DNA from: Octopus vulgaris | Taxonomy: Eukaryota | Length of the DNA: 64,000 bases | NCBI GenBank assembly: GCA_951406725.2 | Contig: OX597815.1 | Coordinates: 97,650,001-97,714,000, forward strand | Direction of reading: 5' to 3' | In this document: positions 6,103 through 43,237 of the stretch, piece after piece | Position numbering within the stretch: the stretch's first letter is position 1 | Layout: every line of letters begins with the position of its first letter | Made by a program: the position numbers and the translations under genes | Notes under the pieces: generated by a model | Seen by the model: the letters and a program-made list of their open reading frames with translations, nothing else | Databases searched by the model: none | Told to the model about the DNA's origin: nothing

Positions 6103-6283
6103 GTTTGGGTATATGTGGTAGCAGCTTACTTATGCGTCAGTTTTATGCTGTTCGTACTAGCTCGCTTCAGTCCTTATGAATGGTATAACCCACATCCTTG
6201 CAACCCAGATTCTGATGTAGTGGAGAACCAATTTACAATTCTCAACAGCCTCTGGTTTACTGTCAGCTCGTTGATGCGGCAAG
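6103..6283 (+). CDS. Kainate-like ionotropic glutamate receptor, internal exon encoding M1, the M1-M2 loop and the M2 pore loop up to the Q/R site
   Basis: Acceptor tttctgttttacAG (AG 6101-6102) and donor G|gtgact (GT 6284-6285). Translation [61 protein letters not shown] is close to vertebrate GluK2 ([33 protein letters not shown]). 181 nt, ends in phase 1. Confidence 0.96.
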
Positions 6284-6566
6284 GTGACTGTACGTGTTCT
6301 AAGCTACTTTTGCATTTATATCCACAACGGCACATGTACACACTTACACAAAAAACACAAGTGCACGCACATAAGCAATTTCATACACAACAGCTCATAC
6401 ACAGTATATTGACACACTTGTCCATATACAGAATCGCATTCATATCTGTGTGTGTAAGTATACATCTATATACATATGTATATATGTATATATATATATA
6501 TAAGAACGCATATGTACGTGCATATGCATATAAATGAGTGCATATATATATATGTATATATTCATT

Positions 6567-6599
<33 letters not shown>

Positions 6600-6703
6600 A
6601 TTTATCTATATGTATATATATCTATTTATATGTGTGTGCGTATTTATCTATATGTATATATATGTTTGTCTATATATTTATGTGAGAGAGAGAGAGAAAG
6701 CGT

Positions 6704-6760
<57 letters not shown>

Positions 6761-7282
6761 TTTGTGTGTGTGTAAAAAGATTCAATTAGATTCGTCTTTT
6801 AATTTGGAGTTTTCCAAAAGAAGTTTTCTAATATAGATTCTTCATATTTTGCTGCTAGCTTACTGGCGTAAAATTGTGAATATGAAAATAATACTTGTAT
6901 ATAGTGTCTTGTGAATTTACGGAATGAGATCCCATAAAACTCAACACTTTTGATAAAAATAGAGAAGAGAAGGTGTTAAGATATATAAGAGAATTATAAT
7001 TCATGCAGACGATCGTTTTGAACAGCAATATAAAATTCATAGCAAATTCATGGTGTAATAGAATTAATTAGATTACGTTAAATAAATTATGTAACACTGC
7101 ACTCTTCCGTACAAGACGTATAAACTTTTTTTTACATATGACTTGATAAAACAAATACAGAATAGGAACTAGGAGATTCAAATTTATCCTTATGAGAAAG
7201 CAAGATATGTGCGAGTCCAGTTAGGTATTAACTAAAATTAAAGACCATAAGTGTTATTTGAAAATATAAGTGAGAGAGATTT

Positions 7283-8060
7283 TTAGAGACGTTCCTTCCA
7301 TAGATGAGTAAGGAGATTAGAAATTCTAACTCCTGAAGCGCGATGGCATTGTTGGCATCTTTGCGACTGTGCACTGTCGACTCGTTCTGGCACTGGTGTA
7401 GCTTTCAGTGCCAAAATTTGGCACAATTCCTTCCAGGATCTTCCAGTAGCTGAGCTGTTGCAACGAGACGATCTGTTTTTCTGAAACATCGCTGGATTAC
7501 TTCAAGGTCTGCTGTTAATTTTACTCTCTGTTGGGTGAAAATAGCTGGGAGCAGTAGTCTAGGTGGCTGAGGACGAACGTCCTTCAGAGGATCAATATGG
7601 TCTCCTTCTCTGTTTCTGAATGTTCTCAGGATCCATCCAGCAAGTTGTCTGCACTTAGTGGCCGTCTTGGTAATGTATCATCACTCATGTCGATAATCAG
7701 GTCCCTCAGTGATTTAGGCTGTGGCATTGTAATACCCTGTGGACCAGTGCTCACGTTAGTTTTATATCAGTTTTGGACGTTGGTACCGCAGAGCTTGGCA
7801 TTTTTCAGCATTAAACTGCATATTATTGTCCTCAGCCCGTCTGTAAATTGAATCCAATTTTTGCTGCAGGTATGCAACATTGCTGGGCTTCTGTATTTTC
7901 TGCAAGACTTCCGTATCGACTACGTAGCTAGCAAGAGTGGCTATTGAGGCAGCTAGAGGCATATCTCTGCGGCCCACCTCGGAAAGTAGTGGTCCTAAGA
8001 CAGTGCTCTGTGGAACACTGCTCACTATTTTTGTATTCTTTGAGGTGCCTCCGTTGGCTA
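7283..8060 (-). mobile_element. Decayed CR1/L2-type LINE reverse transcriptase fragment
   Basis: VPQSTVLGPLL (for GVPQGSVLGP), SYVVDT (decayed YADD) and LQQKLDSIY...NNMQFNAEKCQALRY thumb motif; contains stops and frameshifts. Confidence 0.85.
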
Positions 8061-8073
8061 CTACTGTCTCACT

Positions 8074-8126
<53 letters not shown>

Positions 8127-8261
8127 ATATATATATACATATATATATATAAATATATTTATATATATTTATATATATTTATATATATATTAATATACAA
8201 ATTTATGTAAATTGATATATATTTATATTTATATATATATATTTATAAATGTATATATATG

Positions 8262-8605
8262 TGAAGGCGCATGGCTCAGTGGTTAGAGCGTCGAGCTTAC
8301 GATCGTCAGGTTGTGAGCTCGAATCCCGGACCGGACTGCATGTTGTGTTCCTGAGCAAGGCACTTTATTTCACGTTGCTCCAGTTCACTCAGCTGTAGAA
8401 ATGAGTTGCAACGTCACTGGTACCAAGCTGTATCGACCTTTGTCTTTCCCTTGGATAACACTGGTGGCGTGGAGAGGGGAGGCTGGTATGCATGGGCGAC
8501 TGCTGGTCTTCCATAAAACAACCTTGCCCGGACTTGTGTCTAGGAGGGTAACTTTCTAGGTGCAATCCCATGGTCATTCATGACCGAAGGGGGTCTTTAC
8601 CCTTT
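8262..8605 (+). mobile_element. tRNA-derived SINE, family B, near full length
   Basis: A box TGGCTCAGTGG, B-box-like GCTCGAATCC, central ttcctgagcaaggcacttt...cactcagctgtagaaatgag core; flanked by TA repeats. Confidence 0.85.
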
Positions 8606-8729
8606 ATATATATATCCGATATTTTGTCGATCGGGTGATCTAGTAGCGCAAATCAGTCGATGTGTTGGTTGAATTGTATATAAAGTTATTAGCATTATCA
8701 TATTGTTCAGGGCTTCCCATCTCAGCTAC

Positions 8730-8776
8730 ATCTGATCGACAAGAGTCAGCAAACTCGAAACATCGATGTTTCAGAT
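8730..8776 (+). ncRNA. Minimal type I hammerhead-ribozyme-like motif with variant core (U3-A8 pair, C4)
   Basis: ATCTGA [stem I], TCGACAA [core], GAGT cagcaa ACTC [stem II], GAAA, CATCGATG [palindromic stem III], T T, predicted cut after 8770, TCAGAT [stem I]. All three stems pair perfectly. Confidence 0.65.
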
Positions 8777-8918
8777 TCCCGAGAGAGGGCGATACTGAAC
8801 GAACGGGGTATTTTCACACCTTTTCACCATAATAGAGAAGTTTTCTCCACGGTAATTGCTGTGTATTTGCCTTTAACAGTTGAAATATGTGACAAATATA
8901 GTTCAATTCACCTGGCTT

Positions 8919-8983
<65 letters not shown>

Positions 8984-9771
8984 AGAGAGTGAAAGATAGA
9001 TAGATAGATATAGTTCATATATATATATGTATGTATGTATATACGTCTACACATATATTTATATATACATGCTTATTTTGATCATTATAGGTGCGTGTAT
9101 GTGTGTATGCGCATGTATTACTTAACTAGTTGGTTTCTAATGCATTCTCACACTACAACGAAAGTTAACTGTTGCACAAAATTAAATTTTGTCATTATAT
9201 ACGATACATCTTCATTTTTTTTCCATATGTATTCCACTTTGCAGCTGTTTATCATAGAATTTAAATTATTATATATTCTAAATATATATCAACTTTAAAT
9301 GTGATAATGTATTTATAAGATATGTCCTTCACACTGTATATAAAAGTAATATTCTATATATGCACCTTATGCCTGAGTTTATCTTGTTCGAAACATAAGT
9401 GCTGAATCAGTTAAGTTACACGATCGAAATTCGTAAACAAAATGCATTTAAAAAATGTGCTTTCTTTCTTTACTCTGCTTTTCCAAATAAGGAATTCTTT
9501 AAATTTTAAAATGGTGTTAAACGTTTTTTTTGCCCCAACTAACGTTAAAACCTTACATGTATTCATGTTGCAAGTATTGAAGTTCCAACGTATTTTGAAA
9601 CAGTTAGATTTTTCTATATATCCTATTGGACCATTGATGACGCTAAGTGTATTTTGGGCAATCGGATACGTAAACTCCTCAAACTGGCTCCTTTAATTTA
9701 AATCAGATAGACTTTAATTAGAATTAGTTTTTGCGTCATATTCTGTTTCGAAACAAGAATATAATATATAA

Positions 9772-9845
<74 letters not shown>

Positions 9846-9850
9846 CATTG

Positions 9851-9904
<54 letters not shown>

Positions 9905-10012
9905 CATGCATAAATATATATGTATATGTATATATGTATGTATGCATATATATATATGTATATGTATATATGTATGTATGCATATATATATATATATACA
10001 TATATATATATG

Positions 10013-10043
<31 letters not shown>

Positions 10044-10178
10044 GTAAGTATGTATGCATATATATATATATATATATATGTGTGTATATATGTATGTATG
10101 CATATATATATATATGTATGTATGCATGTATGCATATATGTATATATATATATATATATATGTATGTATGCATATATG

Positions 10179-10224
<46 letters not shown>

Positions 10225-10400
10225 TATATCAATATAAATAGTGTTAGCGGTTATAGTAACCGATTAAGGGATCGAATATTCGTATAGAGACTCGGTATCT
10301 GTTAGATGTATTATCCCGGGGCAGTGGTGTGCAGGTACACCATAGACGTAGGGTGCAGATAACAACAGGATAAACAAAAGTTTATGAGGAACCAATGCAA

Positions 10401-10848
10401 ATAATTAGAAAATGGAGAAAACCACAGATTAACCAACACATCGATTGGACCACATTTATTACTTATTTTTTTAATACAAAGCATATCATAAAATTGGTGA
10501 CGTAACACATCTAACGGGTGGTACTGATCGGATTGTGAAAATGCTTTTACCTACTGACCCTGTAGCCCCTGATGGTAAATTATTTGCTCTTAAAATATTG
10601 GGCTTCTAGACTATTTGTCTAAGCCATATTTTCTTTCCTTTTCCTTCTTCCCTTTATTTATAATGTATGTTCTTGTTCTTCACTCTGTGGAAGATCCGTT
10701 GCCTTAATTCGAATGCCCTATAAAGATGAAGAACTTTATTCTAGCATTTACGTCACCTATTTTGTTATGCCATGCTTTGTATTAAAAAAATAAGCTATAA
10801 ATGTTGTCCAATCGACGTGTTGGTTAATCTGTGGTCGTCTCCATTTTC

Positions 10849-10855
<7 letters not shown>
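10401..10855. repeat. Imperfect inverted repeat (arms about 10401-10505 and 10748-10855)
   Basis: ataattagaaaatggagaaaaccacagattaaccaacac...ggtgacgtaa is the reverse complement of ttacgtcacc...gtgttggttaatctgtggtcgtctccattttctaattat with scattered mismatches. Confidence 0.9.
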
Positions 10856-10890
<35 letters not shown>

Positions 10891-10895
<5 letters not shown>

Positions 10896-11030
10896 TAAAT
10901 TAGAGATAAAGCCACTATTAGGCAACTAAAACAGTGATAGATATAAACCAAACATAAAGAAAAATAAATATAATCAATATAATATATAATATGAGTTACC
11001 TAATAGTGGTTTTATCTCTAATTTAATTTA
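10891..11030. repeat. 37-bp inverted repeat (10891-10927 / 10994-11030)
   Basis: taaattaaattagagataaagccactattaggcaact versus agttacctaatagtggttttatctctaatttaattta; 2 mismatches. Confidence 0.9.
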
Positions 11031-11096
11031 TATTTATACTGTGAAATTTGATTTAATCCTAAATCTAATTTTTCTTTGTAAGTTTGGATATACTCC

Positions 11097-11164
<68 letters not shown>

Positions 11165-11175
11165 AGGGAAGGAGG

Positions 11176-11239
<64 letters not shown>

Positions 11240-11663
11240 CATAGATAATGTTTCATATCCATCTGTGTAAATATGTATGTGTATGTGCAGGAGTGAATAT
11301 ATGTATATATTTATGGATGCGCATCAATATTCTTGAAAATATATGTATGTCTGTAAGCATTTATGTATTTATATATGTAAGCATACGTTGTTCAAAAAAA
11401 GTCTTTTAAGATCTACATCGGGCAGCTGTCAAATCATTCAAATATTTGTTTACTATACATTTTTATATCCCATTTACCTTACATTACACAAGGAAAAACA
11501 TATAAGTGCAACAGTATTAATCTTATTTAAGATAACGTTATTTACAAGATCTACATGACTGCCGCTTCAGTTAGTACTTTCAAAGAATCTGAATTCCAAA
11601 CGAACGTCTTCGCCATAAAAGTGGATTCAAGGTGTCTGGAGAAAACTTGCATATAATTTAATG

Positions 11664-11712
<49 letters not shown>

Positions 11713-12302
11713 CTCTGGACTTCTGGGGTAAAGAGGACCAGGTCCCTAAAAGCAATCGCAAAAGCAGCTGAAAAAGTTTCCAACAGGATTTAATTCACCA
11801 AGATTGAAAGGAAACATCATAGTGTCTCATCTTCAAGATGTTATAATATCCAAGTCAACCTCGTATTTATGGGGCCTAAAAAACCTGGAAGGTGCAAGGC
11901 ACAATATATATGGGTATCCTGGAGTCATGATCTGGATGCTGCTCAGCCCCATTTGATTGTATGGAGTTAAGGGTCGAAACACTTGCATAAGTGTGTTTTT
12001 CTTTTCTGTTAGAGTTCCTTATTGCATACTTACCTACCTACCTAGTAACATAGGCACACCTCTGCCTATCACTCTCACTCGCTTTCTCTCTTTCTCTCCC
12101 TCTCTCTTTCTCTCTCTCTCTCTCTCTTTCAATATGCATACACATAGATAGACAGACAGGTAGATACATAGATAGATAGATACACACACATACCTACACA
12201 CTTATATGTGTATATATATATATAAATATATATATATATACATATATATATGTATATATATATATATATAAATGTATGTATATTTATATGTATGTATATA
12301 TG

Positions 12303-12367
<65 letters not shown>

Positions 12368-13428
12368 GTGTGTGTGTGTATGTGTGTGTGTGTGTATCTG
12401 TACAAAAATATGTACATATATACATATGCATAAATATATATTTATATACATGTGTATGTGCGAGCGCACATGTCTGTGTGTATACTTACTTCGTTATATA
12501 GTTTGCGTAAATCACAGCTAGCGCAGGACATAACTGCATTTCATACATACTTACATACATGTGTCTGTGTGTGTGTATGTGTGTGTGTGTGTTTATGCGT
12601 GTGTGGGTGTGTGGGGGTGTGTGTATGCGAGTGTGTGTGTGTGAGTGTGTATTCGAGTGTGTGAGTGCGTGTATGTTTGAATGAGAGTATGTGAGACTTC
12701 ACTTCGCGAACGATGCACAGAAAAGAGGCTTTCGTCCTCTCCTAATACGCACACGTTAGTGGCTAGGAAAAGAGAACTCTGATGGATTCTCGGTCTAGGG
12801 AATGCATGCAAAATTCTACTCTCAGTCCGGTGCTGCTTTGTCACTGTTCATTACCATTGCCAACTATTTATTATTATATCAGTATATTCTTTAGTTCTTT
12901 CGTCTATTTTCTCATCTCATGTAAGATCATACTGGAGCAGACACGTCGTGATTATTTCACACACACACACACGCACACATATGTATATATACATAGATAT
13001 ATATATATATATACATATATACACATACTCATATTGGCACATATATGTGTACCCACTGTGAGAGAAAAAGAAAGGCAAAGACAGAGACAGTGAGACAGAG
13101 GAGAAAGTGTAAGGGCCACAGTTAAAGTTGTTTATTATAGATATCGTGTTTCTACACTTTAAATATATTTTGTTTTCTGGAGGTTTTAATTTCTTTCCAA
13201 GAATGCTGTTTATATAATATTTTTAGAAGCTATTCAATCTTCATTATGGCTATAAATGATTGTCATCACCTGAAAATGTCGTATAAATCAAATCTAGCTT
13301 TCACTTTTCTATTCATGTTGTTTCTTCCCAGTTAGCATTATAAATATTTACGAGCAGAAGCACGCATGGCCACATATATTGCTTTCAAACAGATATAGAA
13401 ACATAATCGCACACACATGTATATACAT

Positions 13429-13523
<95 letters not shown>

Positions 13524-13605
13524 GACATATATAGGCATAAATATACTTATAAAACACACATATACATATACATATTTATAAAGATATATACACGTATACA
13601 TAAAC

Positions 13606-13636
<31 letters not shown>

Positions 13637-14524
13637 GGCATATGTGTGTGTGTTTGTGTGTATGCGTGTGTACAAGATATATATATGCGTAAGTGTGTAT
13701 ATGTATGCATGCGTATATCCATACTTCTGACGATGCTTCTTTATGTGTATATTCATAAACTCAGTCACACCATTGTTGATTGTAGCTTGTTTCTAAGTAT
13801 ATATACTTTTTGTGTAAATATGTGTTCAGCTATATATTCCAGTGCGTGCCAGAGGGTGTAATTTCGTCTTTCATGTACACTTCATACTCATTTTCGTAAC
13901 TTGTGGTTTTTCTAGTTTGATAGTGATACATCACTCTCATTCGAAGCTATATTTTTAATATAACAGACTAAATCCAGATACTATACGTTTGTTTTTACTT
14001 TCGCAGCTTTTGACAAATGTATTCAGTGTTGAACAGTTAGCGTAGGACTTAATCCGCTGCACAAAGTGTATATAATTCTTTATGATGAGATAAATATGGA
14101 AATGTAATTGTATATGTGTGAATTGATATAATGTAGTCGTTCTCAGTAAACATGTACATAATGGAGATGCCAATCAATACGTGGAATTCCTAATTACAGA
14201 GAACATACATTAACCCAGCCAGTGTGTCTGCAAATAAATATGTATATGCTCATTTTTGAAATTTATTGATAAAATAAGAAAGAAACCAAGAAAATATTAT
14301 CACTAGAATCAAGCTGCAGGAATTATGGATTTCGAAAATCAAAATGCTGAATATTTTTGACTATGTATTAAGGCAATTTTTATAGGAAAATAACTTATTC
14401 CATTTTATCTGTTTGCATATAGTTGCTTGGTGTATGTATGTATGTAGGTAGGTAGGTATTTAGGTAGGTAGGTAGGTAGGTAGGTAGGTAGATAGGTAGG
14501 TATATGTATGTATATATATACATG

Positions 14525-14576
<52 letters not shown>

Positions 14577-14611
14577 GCATACATATATACATACATATAC
14601 ATATACCTATA

Positions 14612-14671
<60 letters not shown>

Positions 14672-15612
14672 CTTTGAAACATGGATGAACGACTGAACAA
14701 ATTATTCTAGATATGTTGCGGAATGCTGATAATAGGATGTCGACCTACATGCAGTTAAAATGTCTAGCGCATCATTGTATTTCCTCAACCATCACTTCTA
14801 TAATGATAATGTTCTGCTGCATTTAATTATTCTTCAGACACCATCAGTGATTTCGTCTTCGTGAAGCATGTTGGGAGCAAGTGTGTCTGATAGCACCTAC
14901 CACTTTCCGGGTTATTGAGTAAAATCGATGTTTCAGAAATTAATGAAATAATCGGCTCAACTGGAAAATTAATCTCGGTCAAAGGCTTAACTTTGTGGAA
15001 TTTATTAAAAATCAATGGCGCTTTCTACCATCTCCATACCCAGCTGCATATGAATATGCTATATTTAAACAGAATTATTTGTCTCAGTCTTCACATGTGT
15101 AGAATTCATTAACTTTTGCAGAAATTGATTTGCATTGATCAGAACTCAATAAGCATTGGTTCTTGCAGTCAATAATTAATCTTCTGTTTTTTAATGGGTC
15201 AGTAGAACGCACAGTTATTTGTCTTTACAAGATCCAGAGAAACCGCCACCCTGTGCTATTCATTTGCACTTCTGAGTAACCAGAATTCCTACACCAGTTG
15301 TCTTGGCAACCACTAGCATTTAGTAGCTGACAATTGGCGTACACCTATGCCATCAAGTTTTTGGATATTTAATTTCTTGCTTTAGCATTTGTAACTTTGA
15401 CGTGGCCGAAATGTAAATTGCTAGCATAAATTAAATGTTTTCCCCACTACAGACCCAGTTCTCTCAACACCAACATTTCAAAATCTATAGAGAAGATAAG
15501 CATCTCTTTTCACTAAATAAATGTTACCCAAGCTTGTGTCAGAATTTCAAGATATCTTTTTCCTGAAAGTTCATGTACTAATATTTCTTTGCCTTAAAAG
15601 ACAGGAGCTTTC

Positions 15613-15835
<223 letters not shown>

Positions 15836-17681
15836 CTTTCACTGGCCTATATCTGTTGTTTATCTGTTGCGCCAGAAAAGTTTAAATGCAACGCTTCATT
15901 CGTCTGCTGTCAATGCTATTGTTCCCCAAGCCTCTCCACAGTTCATTTCCTGTGTAAAAGGCTAACGTTCATACATATTCTTCTAACAACATATTACATT
16001 TATAAATTTAACACTTCATTACAGCAACTTTAGAAACTCTATACATCCGTTCGGTCAACTAGAAGTTGACAGAACGCAACAGCTAGAGCCTTTTGTAAGT
16101 AGATATCTTCAAAAAACATAGGGCTAAATAATAATAACAACAACAACAATAATTCTAGACTTCCATTGCTTTTACGATCAGATTCGTTGACAAGATCTTT
16201 CTATAGGCTCATGGCCACTAAGTGTTTTAAATAGATTCGGCTACCGTTGCTATACTTCATATTACTTAATGTTGTTGCGCACTAGGTTATCCTTATTTAG
16301 TGGACCTATGATCAGCTGCGTTCCAGATTTGCTCTTTCTGTCTTGTTTTGTTTCAGATAGAGTTTAACCAAGTTCGTATCTTCTAACGTTTATATATTTT
16401 TTAAGTCACTACGTTGCTGTGTGAATGAACTTGTCTGCTATTTCTAAAAGGCATGAACGAACACATAGAACCTTAATCATTGATTGCTTAAGTGTGATTA
16501 ACCATTGATATTCTTTATGTTAGATTTTACCACTGAACTTTGTTGTTGGTCATATCGATGCAAAGTTGTTTGAAACATTTCATGCAACCATTTAAAAAGG
16601 TATATTCAAATATTCTGACAATCAGCCTTTGTATCTATTGAATGAACCAATATTTTCCATAAAATGTAATTCATTGGTTTAATAAATAGACTATTTTTCT
16701 ATTCGTTTTGCTTCTGTTGTTCATAAAACTACTTCAGCTTTTTCATTTTGAAAAGTTGTTGGAAACTACAACACATCTATTGAAAATATCTTTAGGGTTG
16801 AATTAGTTGCCTTTGACCAAATCCAGTGATGTTAATGTATATTTATTGTACAGCTTGGGTACAGGTTTGACTGTGTGGTTAGGAAGTTTAGTTTACTGGC
16901 AAATACCTCCACTTCGATAGCATTGACCACATTGTGTAGCATTTTGGTTAAATATCGTCTTTTACCACAACAGAAATTTCGGCAGAAATTTCTGTGAGTA
17001 GTTTGTTCGATAGAAACTGTATGTACCCTTTGAGATGTCTACTATGTTGAAAACATTCGAGCCGTCTTTCTTTGTTGGGCAGCTGCATTTTTCCTTCTCT
17101 TCTTCCAATCTCAGAGGCATAAAAACAGGCATAGACGCTGTCGTTCCTTCTCTAACAAAAACTTATCTTTCAAGAGCTCTAAAAGTAGTAAAATATCATT
17201 GATACTGCTATTCTCGTGTTTGGCTTTGTGGTAAAAAAAAACAGCCAGTAGTTCAAGAAAAATCCAGAACATAATATATTATTTTCTACTATAATGTAAC
17301 AATTTAGTATAGAAATACTACCATGTATTGAAATCCTTGTAATTTTTAAATGCCTCAATGAATATTTTTGTTTTGGCATTTATCGAACTGCAAATGAGAT
17401 TCTTTCAATACGACTACTTGTTTTTCTTAGTTTAGAGGACAACTACAATTAACTTATTTACTTTTCATCACAAGATCAATATGTTTTTCTAATAATTGAT
17501 TGGTAAAAACATTTTCTACGCTGCTAAGTATCAGGGGATTTCACATTGTCTTTCTATTCAGTTAGTTAACATATGCATATACACACCAAACCAGACTCTC
17601 TCTCCCTCTCTATATATATATGTGTCTGTGTGTGTGTACGTGTGTATAAGCATAGCCATTCAAATATACACATATGCATAA

Positions 17682-17725
<44 letters not shown>

Positions 17726-17792
17726 CACTCACACACACATATATATATAGATAGATATATCAATACATATAGTCTTATGTTTTGTATACTTG

Positions 17793-17831
<39 letters not shown>

Positions 17832-19284
17832 TTGTGTATGTGTGTGTGTAACTCTATACTTTTATGCGAACACACTTTCTCTCTCTATATATATATATAC
17901 ATATATATGTATGTAGGTATGTATGTATTATGTATGTGTGTATGTATGTATGTATGGCAATTTGTGTTGTAAATCTTCATAATTTTCTCTTTCTCTCTCC
18001 CCCCTCTCTCTCTCTCTCTCACTTTCTCAGTATCGATAACAGTGCTTTTGTGCTTTGTTACAGCAAGAAATCTTTCTTACTCTGTATTTGTGGTCTTAGT
18101 TTGTATTCCCCCAGTAAAAAAAAAACTATATTCTCGGTTTAAGAAAATAAAATCGTGCCTAGCTGAATGAAATACTACTGGAAAATATGGTATTTCACTC
18201 AAAATAGCATAACAGAATCCCTCAGAGTATGCTTTTTATTAATTTGTACCTTGGCACACAGATTCCGACATTTCAGAAGAGTAGAGATTAACTAATTTAT
18301 GACCCTGCAAACGATTATCTACTACTATTATGTATTAAAATCGCTGGAGGAAGAACAAAAATCGAACCCTGTATGATTTTTATTGTTTTGATTATATTAT
18401 GAGTATTATTTGAGTAAAAAAATATATAAAACCATCAAAGAAAGAAATTGTATGCAGACGCTCGACCTGCTGGATTTAGCGGCTACATCCCTATCAACCG
18501 TTACTCTAGTTCTACATATTTAAATATGAAGTCCTTGAAAGAAGTCAAAAACAATAGGATGAAATGACAGGAGCACAATTGATGAAATATCAGATCGATC
18601 AAGTATGACCTTGTGGTAAACAATAAAAGCGTTCCAAATCTATTCCAAACTTAGAAATAGAAAATAACGGAACTAATAAACAAGCCACAATTCGTATGAA
18701 AAAATAATAAAACGTAAAAGGTAAAATATCCTTGTGGACAAAAGTGTTGGTACAATCTCCCAAAGGATTTGACTTCTAGGAATGAAAATTGCAATTAATC
18801 CCAACAAGAATAGGAATAAAAACCTAATAAAACGCAATAATGTAATGCACGCAGTCAGAAGCTCAGAACATTTTGTTATATGTCCATGATGTTTTCATAC
18901 ATTGTAATACATTCTACAATTTTATAATGGTACATACATGACGCATTAGGAGCTGTATAAAACATGGATGATTTTCCTCTCTGTTTTCTCCATGAAGACA
19001 TTGCTATTTGTAATCCTTGATTTGCGTATATGTCAAACAAAACAAAGTATTATTAATCTGACGTTGGGAGCAGGTCAGAAGATTGTAAGCTAGTAATTTG
19101 ACGTTATTTTAGATATATTTCGGTTGTTGTTGTTTAACATTTAGCTGATTTAGGGCTAAGCTATAACTACACAGCAACATGTACGAAATACATTGAAAGA
19201 CTACACTATCCAGTTTGTTCTTTCTTTCTTAAGAGAATAACTCATGATTTTTTGAAGATTTGGTCATTACTTCTTGCAGGAATA

Positions 19285-19495
19285 AAGTGGTGAGCTGACA
19301 GAATTGGTAGCACGAGGACAAAATTGTTAGCGGCATCATTTCTAGTTTTACGTTCTAAGTTCAAAGTCACCGAGGTCAACCTTGCCTTTTATCTTTTCGG
19401 GGTCAATAAAATAAAGTACCACTCAAGAATTAGGGTCCACGTATTCGACTAACACCCATCCCTAAAATTACCGGTCTTGTGCCAAAATTTGAAAG
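19285..19495 (+). mobile_element. CORE-type SINE, family C, degenerate
   Basis: gtggtgagctgacagaat head and gaggtcaaccttgccttttatcttttcggggtcaataaaataaagtacca CORE-like domain. Confidence 0.7.
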
Positions 19496-19659
19496 AACTG
19501 CTTCTAGCAAGAGTACTAATACGATATTGCTTGTCATCCTTATTTCACTTACTTTCTCGTGTGAGAAATGATACAAAGGTCGATATAAGCTAATTGTAGA
19601 TTGAGATCGTAGAGAAACGTACTTAACTGCTACAAGCCATCCAGTACAGCTCTTTACCC

Positions 19660-19895
19660 TTTCTTATTGCTTTACTGCCCACAAGGGGCTGCACACAGAG
19701 GGGAAAAACAAGGACAGATAAACGTATTAAGTCGATTATATCGATCCCAGTGCGTACCTGGTAATTATTTAATCGACCCCAAAAGGATGAAAGAAAAATC
19801 GACCTCGGCAGAATTTGAACTCAGAACGTAGCGGCAGATGAAATACCGCTAAGCATTTCGCCTGGCGTGCTAACGTTTCTGCTAGCTCGCCGCCT
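19660..19895 (-). mobile_element. CORE-type SINE, family C
   Basis: Reverse strand ggcggcgagctagcagaaacgttagcacgcc...gagttcaaattctgccgaggtcga...tttcatccttttggggtcgattaaataattaccag. Confidence 0.8.
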
Positions 19896-22493
19896 TAACG
19901 TTTCTGCCACCTCTTTACCGTTTCTGCCAATCTAAGTTCACTAGTAATTACGCTAATTACTAATTAATCAGACGTTCTATTCTACGCGTAAACATTTCAA
20001 AACTACAATATTCTTCACAGCATAATTGGTTTTGAAAATATACATTATGTGACAATAATTTTAAGTTCAGAACCAGAAATATCCGTCCCATTTGCTTAAC
20101 ACTCGTTCTTAGTCTGAAATTATAGACTTCAGTTTATTCAGAGAAATCTGATATTTTCAGAGAGAATCAGTTACAAAGGAATCCTTACAAAATATTTTGT
20201 TCCGTGTTTTAAGATTTCCACGTAACGCAATATTGTTAGCCAGTATAATTTTTTGTTTTTATTTTCATTTTCGTAGTTGTTGTTGTTGTGTTGGTGGTTG
20301 TATATTGAAATAATTTCTTCTCGATGCAGTATTGTAAAAAGAACTTGTCTTCATCTGACCTACTTCCGCTTCCCTTTTTCTATTTCTCCTAATTCTTTCC
20401 TTATTTTTTCTTCTACGTTATTTCATAGTATTTTTTATATTTTCAATGTATTTTTTCTCCTTTTCGAGAACATCAGTAAAGAAATCATGTCAAGATTTGA
20501 AGAATTTCAATAAAACTTTATGGTTTCAGATGCTTACATATCGCTAATGAAAAACACACCAGTACACACACACTGAAAAGATAGACTTTCAAACAATATT
20601 GTATAGATAAAACCGTATCATAAAATTTTTCACACTTAATTATATTTACGCAAATACGCACACATACATACATACATATGTATATATACACACGTGCATC
20701 CATGCACACATACATACATGTACGCACACACATACACACACACACACGAGTATATATGTATATGTATGTGTGTGTATTTGTGTGTATATGTATGTATGTA
20801 TGTATGTATCTATGTATACGTGTATACAGCGTACTTTTTTAGTATGCCAATGCATATGTGTATACGCTTCTATATATTTGTGATTTTGTTTAGGTTTCAT
20901 TATATTTCGTTAAGATAGAAACTATTTTGATGTGTAATTAGAAAATGTGATTAAACTAAGATTCATAAGCTTTTATGTGTGGTCTTTTCACATTTTAAGC
21001 ATATTTGAAAATTACTGTTATTCAATACTATCTATTGGTCTAATCTTTATATTCCCAACACGCTGTTCCCTATGGAATTTATCTATATTATATTTTTTCA
21101 ATGGAATTTTATTTACAATCTAAAACTTTTTATATACTTTAACTACTTTCTCCTATCATTTCCTGATTTTAACATTAAAAACGGTCAATTTCTTGAACTT
21201 AGATCCAATACTTTAAATGATATAAAACAAAATATATTTATTTTTAATTATCATAGTGAGCTAATTTAATCTAGTCTGCCATAAAATATACTTAACAGTA
21301 TAGCTTATTTGTACAGTGATATGTAGTATATTTATATAAGAATATTGATATCTTTATTTAACTTATATTTGCTTTCTATTTAATTTAGTATTCACTTTTA
21401 ATTAACTTACAGTTTAAATGTGTTAATTAATTTTACCATCACAGCGGTCAACGGCAAAATTATTACTACGCCGGGCAAAGTGGTTAGCGACAAGTACCCG
21501 TGGAGCAGTGGAGTCGGTGTAATCGACTAACCCCTGCCCAAAATTTCAGGTCTTGTGCCTATTGTAGAAAAGAATTAATACAACCATTTCGTTGTAACTT
21601 TTGGTGAATTTCCGTTTGTGACCAATATTCGTGCTTCCCTTCCATCGAATAGTCTCGTTGTCTGACTAAATCATTTACAAGAAAATAAATTTACCTCTTA
21701 ATCACGAGCTAAAAACGGAGCTCATTTGCTAGCGTTCCCGTTATCTAGCGGTCCAGCAAAAGGGACGGACGAATATGTGCCAGAATAGTATGAAATAGCA
21801 TAAGTACTGGAGTTCTGTTGTTCGTTTAAAGCCTTGGAAAGCGGTGTCCTAGTCTGGCCGTAGTCCAACTACTGAAGCTAGTAAATGATAAAAGATATAA
21901 AACAGTAAATAATTAACTGCAAACACCGTTTGACAGAACCAATGGAAGTACCACACATTCTTTTGTTCAAATTCAAAATAATCGAAAAATATATATATAT
22001 TTTGGTATATGCGGTTGATGTTCAAATATTTGAAATGGTTAATGATAATATATATGATAACTAGTTCATGAAAGTTATTTTGATATAAGTATATTATATA
22101 GTATTATTTATATATTTATTTTGATACAAGCATGGCATTATATTATAGCAGTGTTTTTAACATCTGCTGTAACTCTTATAATTAGGATCGCAGAAACAAA
22201 TATGTTATATTGATAAGAAAGTAAACAATGAATAAGAAAAAATCTGTGAATATTTAAGATACAAAGCTGATGGGTTATCGAGATATTGTGCAAATGTGTG
22301 TCAGTGTGTGTGTGCGTGTGTATGTGTGTGCTGTTAGGTACGTGTATGTCAATGAATGAATATATGCGTGGGTGTCTATGTTTGGACGTATTTTACATGT
22401 GTATTTTTATGTTGGTGTGTGAGAGAGATTATATATGTACGTATGTATGCTTGTATTTATGTACGTATATATTTGTACACACACACACTCACT

Positions 22494-22568
<75 letters not shown>

Positions 22569-22987
22569 TTACATATATGTGTGTGTGTGTACGTATATAT
22601 ATGTTTGATATTATGTGTCTGTGCATATTGCTATCCGCCTTTATGTGTAGATATTAATTTGTAGTTTTGTGCAGCCTTCTCTGTATATCTATATTAGTCT
22701 GTCCGCACAGGTTTATTTGGGCGGGTGAGGACAGAATATGTTTTACTCCATTATTTATATTTTAATCATTTTATTTCTATTTTGTATATTTTTTCTCCAA
22801 CTGAGAAGATCATTTCAATTCATGGAAAAAATATTTTGCGTACATTCAGTTTTCAAATACTTATTATATTCAGCTACTTCATCTGATTCCATGACCATCA
22901 CTCATTGTATGCTCGTTACCACTACACACACACACATACACATGCATACACGCATCATTACCACTACACACACACATACGTATATAT

Positions 22988-23884
22988 AGTGAGAATTTAC
23001 AAAAAGAACACGAAGACAGGTGTGTAAACAACAAACATATATATTAGTTTAACGTTCGGGAAGTGAGAAAGTCTTTTACGTTTCGAGCCTATGCTCTTCG
23101 ACAGAAAGGAACACAGAAATTAAAAAAAATTAGAGAAAATTGAAAAGGTTTGGTGGCTAGCGATCTATCATGGCGAATGCCGGTCAGAGGGGTCACACAG
23201 GACAGCGAGGCAGGGGATATAATAAAGTAGTGGTGATCCCAAAACGAAGATGCGGTTGTATGTGAGAGCGTGTATGTCCGTATGGAAGAGGGCTGGTGAC
23301 ATTGACGTGTGCGTGTGTGCATGTGTAGGTGTGTGGATGATGGTGTAGGTGCTGGGAAGTGGTCAGTGCTAGTGTTGCAGAATGGTGTGATGTGGTGTGA
23401 TGTATGGTGGTGTGTGGTCTGGTGTTGTGTTGTGTGGTGGTGTGTGTTGTGGTGGTGTGTGGTGTGAGGTGTGTGGTGCGGTGTTGTTGGGTGTGGGAGG
23501 CGAGAGTGGGGAAAGCAAGGATGAAGTCTAAGGGATAGGGTGGGGATGGGATGGGTTGTATAAGGATAGTGGGGTTGGAATGTGTTTGGGTGGGGTAACG
23601 AGGGAGAGGTGCCGATGAAGGGAGAGGGTGGAAGGGAGAACGTGGGTAGGAGTGAAGAGAGAAATAGGTACCAGAGCAAGAACGGGAGGTGGGTGGGAGG
23701 AAGTAGGTTTGAGAGGAAGGGAGGAGAGAGGAGGAAGGTTAGATGAAGAGGGGACGAGAGTTGAGCCCATATGGTGCAAAGCAGCGAATAGAGAAGATTA
23801 ATCCCTGCTCACGACGAAGCCGGGAGTCTGGATGGCCCTGTGCAAGGATAATCCGAACACAGACAGGTGTTGTAAAGGGCGGCC

Positions 23885-23885
<1 letters not shown>
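22988..23885 (-). mobile_element. 5'-truncated Penelope-like element: GIY-YIG endonuclease C-terminus plus terminal repeat with a hammerhead motif
   Basis: Minus strand about 23880-23739 reads HLSVFGLSLH/(frameshift)QGHPDSRLRREQGLIFSIRCFAPYGLNSRPLFI*, matching the PLE pattern R..RE...I..L....P.GLN. A low-complexity tract and a hammerhead-like motif at 23108-23073 follow; both ends abut (TA)n. Confidence 0.8.
23073..23108 (-). ncRNA. Minimal hammerhead-like motif in the PLE terminal repeat (A6 replaced by U)
   Basis: Minus strand CTTT-CTGTCGA-A-GAGC atag GCTC-GAAA-CG-TA-AAAG, with a palindromic ACGT stem III. Confidence 0.55.
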
Positions 23886-23932
<47 letters not shown>

Positions 23933-24115
23933 AAAATGAGATAGGGGGGAGGGTTATGAGTGTAACCTACTATGGGATATCAGTTATCCAATATACTGCC
24001 AGTGAAGTACCCAAAAGGCTAATGCATAAATGCTTACAATTGCAATGCAATTAGTTCATTTATTGTATTAGATGGGCGAAGGTAAAATGTTTTACCTCAA
24101 AATCATAATACAAGT

Positions 24116-24212
24116 TAGAAAATGGAGGAACAGATTCCTTTCAATCATCACCTTACAGATAATACCAATCTGTAAGTTGATGATTGAAAGGAATCTGTTC
24201 CTCCATTTTCTA
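24116..24212. repeat. Near-perfect hairpin with 45-bp arms and a 7-nt loop
   Basis: tagaaaatggaggaacagattcctttcaatcatcaccttacagat - aatacca - atctgtaagttgatgattgaaaggaatctgttcctccattttcta; 44 of 45 positions pair. Confidence 0.95.
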
Positions 24213-24225
24213 TTTGTACATTTAT

Positions 24226-24274
<49 letters not shown>

Positions 24275-24296
24275 GCATATATGTTATGTTTGATTA

Positions 24297-25100
24297 AACG
24301 AGGCTAAAGCACGTAGAGTGAAGCCGCTTGGAAAACTTGACCTTGAACGCATGTGCACTTAGAGTTAATGTTCTGGCTCACTTCCGCAGTTTACAACAGT
24401 GCTTGGAACGAAGGTGTGTAGTGTGTCATCGTCGCTTTCACCATGAGAGATAAAGTTGTCATGGCGATACCTGCTCAGAGACCTACGCAGTGTTGTTGAA
24501 CGTATGTGGAGAGGATTGCATGATCCGCACACAAGCGTACGAGCGTTTCAGACATTTCCAAGATGGCCGAAGAAATGTTGATATTGAAGAATGTTCTAGG
24601 AGACCCGCAACAAGCTGAACTGAGAAAAACATCGCAGATGTATGTGCAGCTGTGTGAGGAAATAGTCGAACCATTATCCGTGTGATATTAAAGGCTGTAC
24701 AGACAAGTTACGTTTCAGTTCACACCATTTTCACTGAAGATTTGGGTATGAGACGTGTGTTTGCCAAGTTTGTACCAAAACTGCTTTTAGCTGACCAAAA
24801 ATACTCTCGGGTTTCAGTTGCACAAGTTCTCCTTGATTTTGTCGAGAACGAAGAAGACTTTCTGAAAACTTTGTGTAGGCCTCTGAGCAGATGTCACCAA
24901 GCTTTTGGCAAAATTTGGGGATTCTCTGCTCAGCTTACTCTGTCATGGTCAATGCGACGATTACACGCGACACACCTTCCTTCCAAGCACTGCTGGAAAC
25001 AGCGGAAGTCAGCCAGAACGTTAAAAATTAGTGTGTATGCACATCAGCGTTCAAGATCAATTTGTGCAAAACGCTTTACTCTTCGTGCTTTAGCTTCGTT
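24297..25100 (+). mobile_element. Internally deleted mariner-type DNA transposon with long imperfect TIRs (about 165 bp)
   Basis: Transposase N-terminal remnant VHTIFTEDLGMRRVFAKFVPKLLLADQKYSRV (WVPHEL-equivalent linker). Ends aacgaggctaaagcacgtagagt... and ...actcttcgtgctttagcttcgtt are inverted copies. Confidence 0.85.
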
Positions 25101-25249
25101 ACTCTGACATATATATATATATATATATATATCGTATCAAGCTAAGAAGTACTCCATAGTTCCAGAATGTTCGACTCGAATCAAATATAGAAAACACTTT
25201 AAATCGTTGTTACCCCGACTACTCCAGCCAAAATCAGTAACAGTCTCAT

Positions 25250-25700
25250 TTTTTCTTTTACAAACAACGAGCGTATACTTTGTCTCCTATTTCGCATAAT
25301 GAATGCCACAAATACCTGGGTATTAATTAAAAAAATATGTATCCTATGAAGGTACTATGAACAAAGTGACCAAGAACATTACACTACTAGACTTAGGAAA
25401 ATATGATATGCATTCATTCATGCAACATTATCTCACAATGCATTTTCAGTACCAGTACTGATATCAACATTTGAGATACTTGAATGGTCTGAAAGAAAAC
25501 CTACTCCATAAACATTAAAACCCGCCAGAAATTGGCGTCAAATGGAAATATCCATAGAAACTGGGAAATCGACAGGCTCTGTCTAAGGTAGAGGCTCAAG
25601 ATTAGTGCAGATAGCCTCCGAGTGTCGTATAATATATCTCAGACTACATTTACTAAACAACAGCAGTGCTAAAAAGCGAAGAAAGCAACGTGTTGCGTGT
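25250..25700 (+). mobile_element. Decayed R4/Dong-like LINE RT thumb fragment
   Basis: Broken translation gives KYLGIN, SHNAFSVPVLISTFEILEWS, NIKTRQKLASNGNIHRNWEIDRL and GRG...ECRII, typical of RLE-clade RT thumb regions. Confidence 0.65.
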
Positions 25701-27806
25701 CAACTGTGACCTCAGGAATTACCTTCTTCCTAACAACATTCCATTTTTCAATACAACCCCAAAATAGCTGGCTGACATACCTTAAAGATAACGTGTATTT
25801 GTAGGTACTTATACATAACATATGAGAGAAAGAGACAATAGACACGGAGGAATTCAGTAACTGTTACAACTATACTGCCGATGACACCAGGTAAACGCAA
25901 AAAGTGAACGTGCTTCAATCGGCATACTAGCCGGTGTACACCAAGTCTAAAATAATTAGGTACTTATATATGTACGTACTGCGTGCATGCATCTCATTTG
26001 CAAGGTACTATTCAAACCAAGAATATGGTGGAAAACACTTTCCCAAAGCGTCATGCAGTGGAACTGATGACGAAGATAAACAGTTATTTATTGTTTTATA
26101 TCTTCAAGTATACTTCTCCTATTGGCTCAGTTCTGAATTCAAATCTTACATTCGGAATTCAAATATACATGCAATTTACTTTAGACCTAATCTGAGACAA
26201 ATAAGCATAATATACTAAAGAGGAATCTATCCAATCGTCTGTGCATCACATTTAATTATTTCATGTTGTACCTATGTTTGGCTTCCATATTTCATAATCG
26301 TGTGATTAAAGAATATAATAAATTGTGTGATTAAAGAATATGATAATTACAAGATGTAGTATATACCATTTGTTCCATACGCGTGTTTGGACATTGTAGC
26401 TGTTTACTTCCCCTTCAGTGGATTTACATATTGCATTTGGATTCAGATCCACAATGGTTTTTCATGATAACATTTTATTACATAATGTTGTTTACCATAT
26501 TCCTTTTGTCTATCATAACCATCAATACTACTAAATACAATATCATCCATACCACTTTGCATGAAGTGGAGTGGAAAATGATGTTCAATATGGAACATTT
26601 AAATTCACCAATAGCAGTAATACATCTAACTGTACACATAGGAAATACTGTATATATGCGTGCATGTGTGTATGCGTATGTGTGTGTATGTGTATGTGTA
26701 TGTGTAAGTGTGTGTGTCTATGTGTATGTATATGCATATGTGTAATGTGCGTTAATTTATATACAAAAACTCGTGAATTTTGCATTGTAATGTGGATTCT
26801 TCAGTCATTTAACTGACGTACCCCTCCAGAGAGAGTGGGAGTACATACTCGTCTATATGAGGATATCATTCGCTTTTCCCTCTAGCTTGCTTTTGATGTT
26901 GCAAAATAATTCTATAAAATATTTCCCATTGTTTCCAGTGATTTTCTGTCTCTCAAATGTTAGCTTCCATTTAAAAATTCTGCATTTTACTATGCAAATA
27001 AAATGCTTTCCATTTCACGTATAGAATATAAATTACAATTGAAATGCCAGTAGGTAAATCTATGTCGGAAAATGTTCTACTATTCCTTGAGGATTGGGGC
27101 GTATTTTTTTTCTTCTTGAAATCCATTGTTCTAAATTTGTCGTAATTGACATTTTCTATTCACTTCTATATTATTTCATATATTTTGCTGTGTAGCGTTT
27201 GGCATCAATCGTTTCTTTTTACTTATAGCCGTCGGTTGGACTCTGCATGTACAATGTTTCTTCTTTCAAAATGTTATAGATATAAAACTGTAATGGCTAC
27301 GTTATCAGTATGCTTGGATCGCAATAGCAGAATGATAGGCTTGCTCCTACGAGGCGCACATCTATCCAATGTTTTCTGCTATGATTTCAACTCGAATTCG
27401 AGAGTAACCTCTGTGGTACTTCACAGGCAATGTATGTAACTGCCTATCCGTCTGTCTATCTGTCTGTCTGCCTGCCAGCCTGCCTGTCTGTCTGTCTGCT
27501 TGTCTGTCTGTCCGTCTATCTATCTATCTATCTATCTATCTATATATATATATATATATATCCATCTATATGCTGCATGTGTGACAAAGGTATATCACCA
27601 ACTACATTTCCTTCATTACAACTCACACCTTGGTATCCTTTCCTTTCTTCGGTCATTTTAGCACACGGTGATCGTTTGAGACACATTTGTTCTTTTCTCT
27701 CGCCATGCTTTATATTCTCGTCGAGTCTTTCTGTAAAAGATCGTATGCTCGAAATGGAAAAGACTTTCCCTTTGATTTTTCCTGAGCGTAAAACTATAAT
27801 ACACTG

Positions 27807-27857
27807 TGTCTTTTTAGCTCGTCTGCGTATTATTTATAACTTTTGCACCATACGTAT

Positions 27858-27928
<71 letters not shown>

Positions 27929-28250
27929 CAGAATGGAGTAGGTAAGATCCGGGCTGCATAAGGTTCGCAGCGAGTGGACCTCAAAAGTGATAAAAATCCA
28001 AGGGAGGTGTATACCACCGGCTACTTTTCAGGGCAAGGATATCTTGATAAAATTAAAGGTTACATTGTTGCAAGGGGGTATATGTTGATGCACATATAGT
28101 ACAAAAGCTATAAACAATACGCAGACGAGCTATAAAGACATGCATGAAGAGTAGCCGATAGTATACACCTCGCTTGGATTTTTGCCACTTCTGAGGTTCC
28201 GCTCTCAATGAAAAACATGTAGCCCGGATCTTACCTACACCATTCCGTAA
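27807..28250. repeat. Interleaved double inverted repeat A-B-A'-B'
   Basis: A (27807-27861) is complementary to A' (28089-28140); B (27926-28030) is complementary to B' (28145-28250). Confidence 0.85.
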
Positions 28251-29253
28251 TTCTTGTATTTGTATTCGCACACCCAGTAACCCCATTCACCTACCGTGGA
28301 ATATGAAAGTAACTTATCCACAACCTTCCGCCTCAATAAACTACTATTGTCCCTGAAAGTTGTTTTTCTATATTTATTATGGATTGCTTGAAGTTAACTT
28401 TCTTTTACTTCCTACACCTCGATCCCTGGATCTTACATTTATACATAAAGATATTTTTAAATATATATATGTGTGTGTGTGTGTTTGTGTGTATTGAATA
28501 GTCAGGATCGTTAGATTGTTGGATACAAGGTTTCATGGTAATTATTCCAAATTTCCCTGTGCACACTTCTACTTCCGTGGCGTCACCATTGTTTGTCATA
28601 ATTTCTGGGTCGATAAACAGCGAACTCGCCAAGGACAGTGTTTTGGCAGAATTGTCAGAGTGTCTAACGTGAAGCTTTCATTTCTATACATTGTAGGTGC
28701 CAAACCTCTGCCAGCACTTTGAAATACCGGTCAAAACGTACTTTTTTTCCTCTTTGAGCTACAGAACAAACACGCACACACACATACAAGCACACACACA
28801 TATGTATATTGTGAAGATGCATTTACGATCGCCAGATCGTGATTTCGATTCCCTGACTGGGTGTAGCGTTGTTTTCTTGATCCAAACGTTTCATTTCATG
28901 TTGCTCTGCTAGCATTTCGTTTCTGACACGTGACATGTGCAGAACCATTACGCGTCGTCTAACGACTGGAATGTTCATTATGTATATATTGTGTAGGTAC
29001 TTAGGGTATTTCCCTTCTGTTTCTAAAAGGGAATTCCTTACATGTTTATTTAACATGTAAAACGTTGTAATTCCTATTAGCAAATGAAACTCCTGTAATG
29101 TTGAATAAATAGCACCAAAATTTTACAATTTCCATACGTGAATGTGTGTATGTGTGTGTGTGTTCGTGTGTGTGTGGTGTGTCTGTGTGTGTGTATGAGT
29201 TTGTGTGTGTGTATGCATGTAATAATTATTTTATATTATACATATTATATACA

Positions 29254-29431
29254 GGCGCAGGAGTGACTGTGTGGTAAGTAGCTTGCTTACCAACCACATG
29301 GTTCCAGATTCAGTTCCACTGCGTGACATCTTGGGCACGTGTCTTCTACTATTGCCTCGAGCCGACCAAAGCCTTGTGAGTGGATTTGGTAGACGGAAAC
29401 TGAAAGAAGCCTGTCGCATATATGTATATAA

Positions 29432-29506
<75 letters not shown>

Positions 29507-29706
29507 GTGTATCTGTGTTTGTTCCCCGAACATCGCTTGACAACCGATGCTGGTGTGTTTAGGCTCCCGTAACTTAGCGGTTCGGTAAAAGATACCGATA
29601 GAATAAGTATTAGGCTTACAAACAGTAAGTCGTGGGGTCGATTTGATTCGACTAAATGCGGTGCTCCAGCATGGCCGCAGTCAAATGACTGTAACAGTAA
29701 AAGAAT
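29254..29706 (+). mobile_element. tRNA-derived SINE, family A, full length
   Basis: ggcgcaggagtgactgtgtggtaagtagcttgcttaccaaccacatggttccagattcagttcc head, internal (TA)(TG) tract, tail ...gcatggccgcagtcaaatgactg...aaaagaata. Confidence 0.92.
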
Positions 29707-34269: not shown

Positions 34270-34500
34270 AGTACTCTAACCTCCTTCAAAGTAGTATTGC
34301 TTAACCTCAATGCGTTTGTTGTAGCACTTCAGTCACTTCGTGAATGCCTCATGTCCTTGAAATTGAAGGTATCTAGGGCCTTTGCCACAGCCTTCATCTT
34401 TTCAATGTGTTCAAAACGACTGCCTCTGGGGACCTTTTTCAGCTTGGGAAGCGATCAAATGCTACAGGGAGTAAGGTCTGGATTCTGGGAAGAATGAGGG
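34270..34500 (-). mobile_element. Decayed mariner transposase C-terminal fragment
   Basis: Minus strand PHSSQNPDLTPCSI*SLPKLKKVPRGSRFEHIEKMKAV corresponds to a decayed YSPDLAPCDF.LFPKLK..LRG.RF motif. Confidence 0.7.
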
Positions 34501-34742
34501 ACTGTTTTGCTATATTTGTGTATCTACTACATCAGTACTTGACTGTGTTTGTATGTGTGTATATTGGTGTATATATGTATGTGTGTGCGCGCGCGTGTTT
34601 GTGTGTTCTTATTGTATGTAAATACGAAAGAAAGATATAGACTGAACATCGGAATGAAAGGAAGTGATAGATACCGTTTTTTGCATCTCGAACTCCTTGG
34701 AGGCTTCCCTTTATACTTTAACTTACCTTATATTTTTATTAT

Positions 34743-36379: not shown

Positions 36380-36432
<53 letters not shown>

Positions 36433-39650: not shown

Positions 39651-39683
<33 letters not shown>

Positions 39684-42013: not shown

Positions 42014-42066
<53 letters not shown>

Positions 42067-42505: not shown

Positions 42506-42540
<35 letters not shown>

Positions 42541-42822: not shown

Positions 42823-42861
<39 letters not shown>

Positions 42862-43145: not shown

Positions 43146-43237
<92 letters not shown>

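Follow-up and report, generated by a model that had tools for sequence, protein, structure and literature searches.

HH9 and HH10, the ultraconserved intronic hammerhead ribozymes of amniotes, are conserved single-copy motifs. The octopus motif described here resembles them in being a type I hammerhead on the sense strand of a neural gene, within a large intron; unlike them, it is one of hundreds of copies of a repeat and shows private signs of decay.

Closer relatives are found among mobile elements. Non-LTR retrozymes are short, ORF-less units with a GC content below 45% and one type I hammerhead per unit, which are arranged head-to-tail, pair strongly with themselves as circles and occur mostly as monomeric dispersed copies (PMC7229834; bioRxiv 10.64898/2026.07.22.740005); their copies are often intronic, about 43% of them in Xenopus (bioRxiv 10.64898/2026.07.22.740005). 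The hammerheads of the pLTRs of Penelope-like elements (PLEs) are mostly single genomic motifs, with opposite-strand neighbours 100–700 bp apart, and the commonest form consists of single, truncated PLE ends (PMC4209133). They depend on dimers and have low in vitro activity (PMC4209133; PMC6765202), being slow and, as single motifs, without detectable cleavage (PMC4209133). Those of the Schistosoma Cercyon PLEs are type I, with a palindromic stem III predicted to be dimeric and a U3-A8 pair (PMC4209133, Fig. S3, S. mansoni 4), and U3-A8 occurs in about 1,300 Schistosoma PLE motifs (PMC4209133). PLE insertions are recognized by an optional tail of 30–40 bp, partial tandems, an inverted 5' copy and a bias for (TA)n (PMC8557442 and its preprint), the tail extending between two start points of reverse transcription (PMC11167929). 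Hammerhead mutants left insertion by a PLE protein in vitro unaffected (PMC11167929), which counts against a needed role of cleavage.

Some departures from the canonical core are also on record: U3-A8 is a natural covariation that is active in vitro (PMC3088659, section 8), and U4C is a viroid variant with considerably lower in vitro activity that still allows infectivity (PMC3088659). GUU triplets are cleavable (PMC9217987) and are also found in PLE hammerheads (PMC4209133, Fig. S3 text).

From the comparisons below, we consider it very probable that the octopus motif is the hammerhead of an ancient, decayed copy of a protein-free 340-bp repeat, likely spread by PLE enzymes, and that the motif, by prediction, cleaves the receptor pre-mRNA barely if at all. 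As an intronic repeat copy, the locus itself is of little weight; the family is a clean example of retrozyme-like units joined to the chemistry by which PLEs insert, with its two priming sites, (TA)n targets, tail and inverted 5' piece.

The motif and its host intron

The window, that is, the whole 64-kb stretch of DNA that was analysed, belongs to a microsatellite-rich genome of 2.8 Gb in about 30 large contigs. The features to which we refer are:

6103..6283, + strand: pore-loop exon of an iGluR-type receptor gene, Pfam Lig_chan positions 4-58
6284..45312, + strand: 39-kb intron carrying the repeat copy, with GT/AG ends; the next exon resumes Lig_chan at 59
8605-8615: shorter (TA)n on the 5' side of the window copy
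8615..8922, + strand: copy (308 bp) of the 340-bp ORF-less head-to-tail repeat unit, 86.9% identical to the family consensus
8705..8710, + strand: distal helix remnant, 5' arm, pairing with 8795-8800 over 6 bp
8730..8776, + strand: minimal type I hammerhead, with stem I formed by 8730-8735 and 8771-8776 (6/6 Watson-Crick)
8736..8742, + strand: core positions 3-9 (U3, C4, A8), common to the family and not private
8743..8756, + strand: stem II, 8743-8746 with 8753-8756 (4 bp), and its 6-nt loop
8757-8759, + strand: G12-A13-A14
8757..8772, + strand: 16-nt perfect palindrome arising from the private C17U (sequence; cofold)
8760-8769, + strand: palindromic stem III, 10 nt
8770, + strand: U17, the cut-site nucleotide, in a GUU triplet
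8795..8800, + strand: distal helix remnant, 3' arm, pairing with 8705-8710
8922..8960: (TA)n microsatellite bordering the copy on its 3' side, the usual landing site of the family
34740-35115, - strand: 375-bp inverted repeat with a type I hammerhead of C3-C4-G8 core (core at 34944)

The exon for Lig_chan 4-58 and the downstream exon, which begins at 45313 and covers Lig_chan 59-113, flank the motif, which is therefore intronic and in the sense orientation. This bears out its placement in the initial annotation, on the sense strand 2.4 kb past the pore exon, and puts it 2.4 kb into the 39-kb intron.

Stems I and II and the palindromic stem III, which that annotation had read from the letters, were all found at their positions, as were its UCGACAA core (U3, C4, A8) and GUU triplet, and the observation of a hammerhead-derived motif is confirmed as real. 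The motif has the three helices, the Watson-Crick 3-8 pair, G5, A6, A9, G12-A14, A15.1-U16.1 and H17 that characterize a type I hammerhead, and has C at position 4, where this class has U. When a descriptor allowing any paired 3-8 combination was used, 8730-8776 was the sole 6/6 stem I match in the window, and none was obtained in 30 dinucleotide shuffles (0/30). Folded on its own, 8690-8810 does not stand out (z -1.47), and Rfam at its gathering threshold gave no matches in the window, hammerhead models included. The additional gttcag/ctgaac pairing, which had been proposed to extend helix I, is present over 6 bp and is the remnant of a much longer family helix, which in the consensus comprises 11 bp plus a second long helix.

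Core states in the family and in other hammerhead repeats

A first look with the 241 bp around the motif gave 794 candidates genome-wide. The 40 that were scored are 79–85% identical to the window stretch (the window's own excepted), the closest paralogues reaching 84–85%, and the 64-kb window holds no second copy of the family. The analysis covered about 50 copies out of several hundred. Segments covering 8732-8771 were aligned from 47 distinct loci, of which 44 yielded a total of 50 segments (that of the window among them), with five duplicate loci dropped and 17 further loci chosen by an exact stem II-III pattern.

U3 is found in 47 of the 50 aligned segments and A8 in 49, with joint 3-8 states of UA in 46, CA in three, UG in one and CG in none. 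C4 is the majority state of the family (33/50), and C17 is present in 44/50. An independent search of the genome, in which positions 3, 4, 7 and 8 of the pattern could hold any letter, returned 43 matches, and none for the reversed control; counted by hand, and partly the same copies as in the alignment, these have U3 in 41, A8 in 41 and C3 together with G8 in none, while position 4 is C in 32, U in nine and A in two. The stem I pair 8734/8772 is C-G in 28/50 segments and G-C in 15/50, which amounts to one subfamily split. Contigs from four DNA runs of two organisms gave the same family profile, with C17 dominant.

The initial annotation had read U3-A8 as a compensatory double change suggesting retained function, and had proposed covariation over genomic copies as a check. 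That check was negative: U3-A8 is family-wide, and C3-G8 occurs in 0/50 segments and 0/43 pattern matches. A sister subfamily with canonical C3-G8 was likewise not found among these segments and matches, in which the three or four C3 copies retain A8. Since U3-A8 is fixed across the family, the pair came with the insertion and is not specific to this locus. What survives of the earlier claim is that U3-A8 is a natural active form (PMC3088659; PMC4209133); retained function at the locus does not follow, as the state is family-wide, so that the earlier interpretation as a whole is partly supported. We infer that what the U3-A8 pair and the swapped stem I pair reflect is selection on the source RNA of the element and not on this locus.

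We also considered whether the U4 copies might be a selected reversion, and rejected this: at the CpG that includes position 4, C-to-T changes number 13 and G-to-A changes 3 of 31. The other CpGs of the family show 2–8 (C-to-T) and 2–6 (G-to-A) such changes, so the CpG at position 4 is higher but of the same kind. Judged from these counts, CpG decay would suffice to explain the U4 copies, short of proof.

C4 had been noted as a feature shared with the motif at 34.9 kb. It is indeed present there, and in all 11 other aligned loci of that family, but it does not indicate kinship: the hammerhead at 34.9 kb lies on the antisense strand, in a separate, younger family (1,397 candidates, 93–100% identity), and the two families show no similarity. 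A third family, of minimal hammerheads, has 8,450 exact pattern matches with C4 versus 3,628 with T; one member is:

L072, near 3252, - strand: minimal-hammerhead family member (the family is absent from the window)

Three unrelated families of hammerhead repeats in this genome thus have C4 as their majority state. Whether C4, usually deemed damaging, is the working, lineage-wide state of the PLE hammerheads of this animal, missed by CUGANGA descriptors, is in our judgement evenly balanced. Cores with a C4 majority would be missed by standard hammerhead descriptors. The variants U3-A8 and U4C are known singly (PMC3088659), whereas here the consensus of a multicopy animal repeat combines them. 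Neither this combination nor an octopus hammerhead repeat was found in the literature searched, a weak negative, as the literature on small PLE hammerhead variants may already describe C4.

The 12,078 exact matches of the minimal-hammerhead family would by themselves give 0.17 expected per 39 kb; with more than 12,000 matches from one family, no special explanation is required for the presence of a hammerhead in an intron of 39 kb. Two further matches are recorded as observations. At positions 201 and 668 (- strand) of locus L004, two same-strand hammerheads with canonical cores lie 467 bp apart, possibly a tandem retrozyme of yet another family. In the window, a relaxed scan returned a weak minimal-hammerhead-like match with U3-A8 at 40779 (- strand), which may be due to chance.

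Insertion anatomy of the 340-bp unit

The family consensus has a period of 340 bp, in that the sequence beyond the 3' end leads back to the start of the unit. The unit contains no ORF and has a GC content of 39%; its fold as a circle is strong (z -7.6, 0/100 shuffles), and copies are 85–95% identical to the consensus (48/49 loci scored). It thus has the make-up of a non-LTR retrozyme unit, being short (within about 170–400 nt), ORF-less and low in GC, with one type I hammerhead and head-to-tail arrangement, and it shares with the published retrozymes the strong self-pairing as a circle and the mostly monomeric dispersed copies (PMC7229834; bioRxiv 10.64898/2026.07.22.740005). Unlike them, it has the U3, C4, A8 core, a conspicuous PLE-type tail and inverted 5' pieces.

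These last features are the marks of PLE insertion. Of 48 copies, 41 have their 3' end at one of two points 37 nt apart, 23 at the first and 18 at the farther one, and most of these ends enter (TA)n (17/23 at the first end and 15/18 at the second; 32/41 in total). An inverted piece is present on the 5' side of 26/48 copies. The family therefore shows the 37-nt tail, the two 3' ends, the partial tandems, the inverted 5' piece and the (TA)n bias. The window copy itself begins close to where the 37-nt tail finishes, and stops at the first of the two 3' ends.

No autonomous PLE, with an ORF for reverse transcriptase (RT) and GIY-YIG between pLTRs, was found in or between copies. Two direct copies 2.7 kb apart were tried as the remains of an autonomous parent, and proved to be separate insertions with no ORF between them. 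An intact young PLE, found via a neighbouring fragment, was also tried as parent:

L098, G000:C2:45343000-45352000: intact young PLE with RT, CX4CX2C linker and GIY-YIG

Its domains were recognized with E-values of 2.8e-8 (RVT_1) and 3.2e-4 (GIY-YIG, just under the curated cut-off), and it has 22,854 candidates genome-wide, the top matches being 96–99% identical at the amino acid level. The element has an upstream ORF of 411 aa, a tandem period of 4,386 bp and an inverted 5' piece; elements of this type have two 3' ends 34 nt apart and (TA)n, and their hammerhead is U3-A8 in 27/29 loci. As a parent it was rejected, since its anatomy is alike but no sequence is shared (best E 0.46). Without shared sequence, the intact PLE shows the mechanism and is not demonstrated as the mobiliser of the 340-bp unit.

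These results bear on whether the 340-bp unit is only the pLTR of an unfound autonomous PLE, with the copies as its truncated ends. Such single ends are, as mentioned, the commonest form of PLE hammerhead (PMC4209133), and the examined copies are about 50 of several hundred. However, past the tail the sequence reaches the hammerhead and the start of the unit within 340 bp, where the intact PLE runs from its tail into an ORF; moreover, no long 5' extension of the unit is shared in 30 loci, and the two direct copies have no ORF between them. We thus judge this explanation very unlikely. With the PLE hammerheads, Cercyon included, the octopus unit has in common the type I form, a palindromic stem III predicted to act in a dimer, the U3-A8 pair, motifs that are mostly single in the genome and opposite-strand neighbours at 100–700 bp. 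It differs from the Cercyon PLE hammerheads in not being joined to an RT-endonuclease ORF, in its longer stem III palindrome (10 nt) and in its 6-bp stem I with a long distal extension. The octopus C4 is a further difference from PLE hammerheads, a term search of the Fig. S3 text of PMC4209133 having returned no core C4.

For the protein-free repeat, we propose that in source transcripts with two units the 10-nt palindromic stems III would pair to form a dimeric ribozyme, which would cut after C17 and release unit-length RNA, possibly circular, like that of animal retrozymes (PMC7229834). A PLE protein with reverse transcriptase and GIY-YIG domains might then act in trans, as has been proposed for non-LTR retrozymes (bioRxiv 10.64898/2026.07.22.740005), priming at one of the two sites 37 nt apart and inserting the cDNA into (TA)n. 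Consistent with the first step, both subfamily consensuses have the active dimeric hammerhead as their two-strand minimum-energy fold, in which stem III forms between the molecules over 10 bp and the core stays unpaired, whereas their active-monomer fold is rare (about 2e-4). We infer the dimer substrate and the circle, because two same-strand hammerheads in tandem units were found at none of 52 loci, a sample of the family; in this respect the octopus family, as sampled, is again unlike the retrozymes.

A copy of the family was also seen within a segmental duplication, in which loci L054 and L055 (G000:C29) are 94–97% identical over about 7 kb, inverted and 1.07 Mb apart.

State of the window copy and predicted cleavage

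The window copy probably entered the intron before two related species split, and would have drifted since. Contigs of a second organism (runs X6, record 26, and X10, record 11) match 8706-8800 with 3 differences in 95 nt, which is far closer than any scored paralogue in the window's own genome (84–85%), and have, some 140 nt upstream, an inverted piece that is missing from the window. The match is likely to represent an orthologous insertion, as judged from the sequences. If so, the insertion predates the split of the two species; it gives no measure of selection.

The copy differs from its subfamily consensus at 11/111 positions, and these changes mostly break distal pairs, none being compensatory; an A-to-G change at 8749, in the stem II loop region, is also private. 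Its predicted fold energy is -29.9 kcal/mol, versus -52.0 kcal/mol for the subfamily consensus, and it ranks 32nd of 50 segments, some of the lower-ranked ones being truncated. The private letters are not assembly errors, since contigs of three runs match them: that of X4 is identical to the window over 8642-8827, a stretch that includes the predicted cut (which is uninformative on cleavage), that of X2 covers 8756-8913, and X3, which may itself be the source, agrees with the window letters. None of the contigs is on record as RNA, and for X4 this would be a guess. Absent rows for 8736 and 8741 in the contig tables were not counted, as known variation at 8737 is likewise unlisted. Taken together, the private changes look like decay.

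At the cut site, C17U completes the 16-nt palindrome 8757-8772, so that the site is predicted to be buried and able to pair with A14; drift would thus have broken the distal helix and let the cut site pair. U17 alone would not be disabling, as GUU occurs in published PLE hammerheads (PMC4209133). For the dimer of the window minimal motif, an inactive duplex (-32.1) is predicted to be more stable than the active dimer (-27.9), the opposite of the order predicted for the consensus. The predicted share of the active-monomer fold is about 2e-4, a figure for secondary structure only; ViennaRNA disregards tertiary core contacts. A designed self-lock, in which the U3-C4 core pairs with the stem III palindrome, was considered as well: the helix is predicted, but the idea was rejected as a property specific to this variant because the active-monomer share is equally low with U4 or with a canonical core (1–2e-4).

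Could a passenger that is not under selection nevertheless still cleave a minor fraction of the receptor pre-mRNA, acting as a monomer whose stem III has 3 bp? The copy has kept stems I-III and every core position, the long intron carries it in the sense orientation, U3-A8 allows activity in vitro (PMC3088659) and GUU is cleavable (PMC9217987). On the other hand, U4C considerably lowers activity in vitro (PMC3088659), single PLE motifs are without detectable cleavage and PLE hammerheads are slow (PMC4209133), and to the low predicted active-monomer share is added the C17U change, which lengthens the competing palindrome. We therefore regard such residual cutting as unlikely.

The initial annotation had gone further, suggesting that the motif could cut the receptor pre-mRNA during transcription, and a co-opted intronic ribozyme of this kind would affect processing. 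All 40 constrained positions of the minimal hammerhead are unchanged in the window copy, for which P is about 0.008 at an 11% background, uncorrected for the motif having been chosen for looking intact; and the second-organism match suggests that the insertion has persisted in two species. Against co-option, the core state is inherited and not locus-specific, equally intact segments with the better C17 exist (2/31, both keeping it), and the cut site and distal helix have decayed. Furthermore, no neutral yardstick places the 3/95 differences below background, hammerhead repeats are very common in this genome (as the 12,078 matches of one other family attest) and intronic retrozyme copies are common elsewhere, as in Xenopus (bioRxiv 10.64898/2026.07.22.740005). 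Co-option is in our estimation very unlikely; if true, it would be an independent invertebrate case, in which a mobile-element hammerhead with a doubly variant U3-C4-A8 core had been recruited in a neural gene.

Some observations on the surroundings may be added. Directly upstream of the copy lies a tRNA-like, SINE-type repeat (8244-8604, + strand; A- and B-box-like motifs judged by eye), with a weak second match at 28823-28906. Read-through from it into the motif was considered and rejected, as a T4 run at 8622 precedes the motif. A broken, reverse-transcriptase-like LINE fragment, judged from translated stretches, occupies 7300-8060 on the - strand. Finally, near its end (6268-6283, + strand) the pore exon codes in the genome for Arg (codon CGG), at a position that would correspond to the vertebrate Q/R editing site; Arg at this position would predict a Ca2+-poor subunit without editing.
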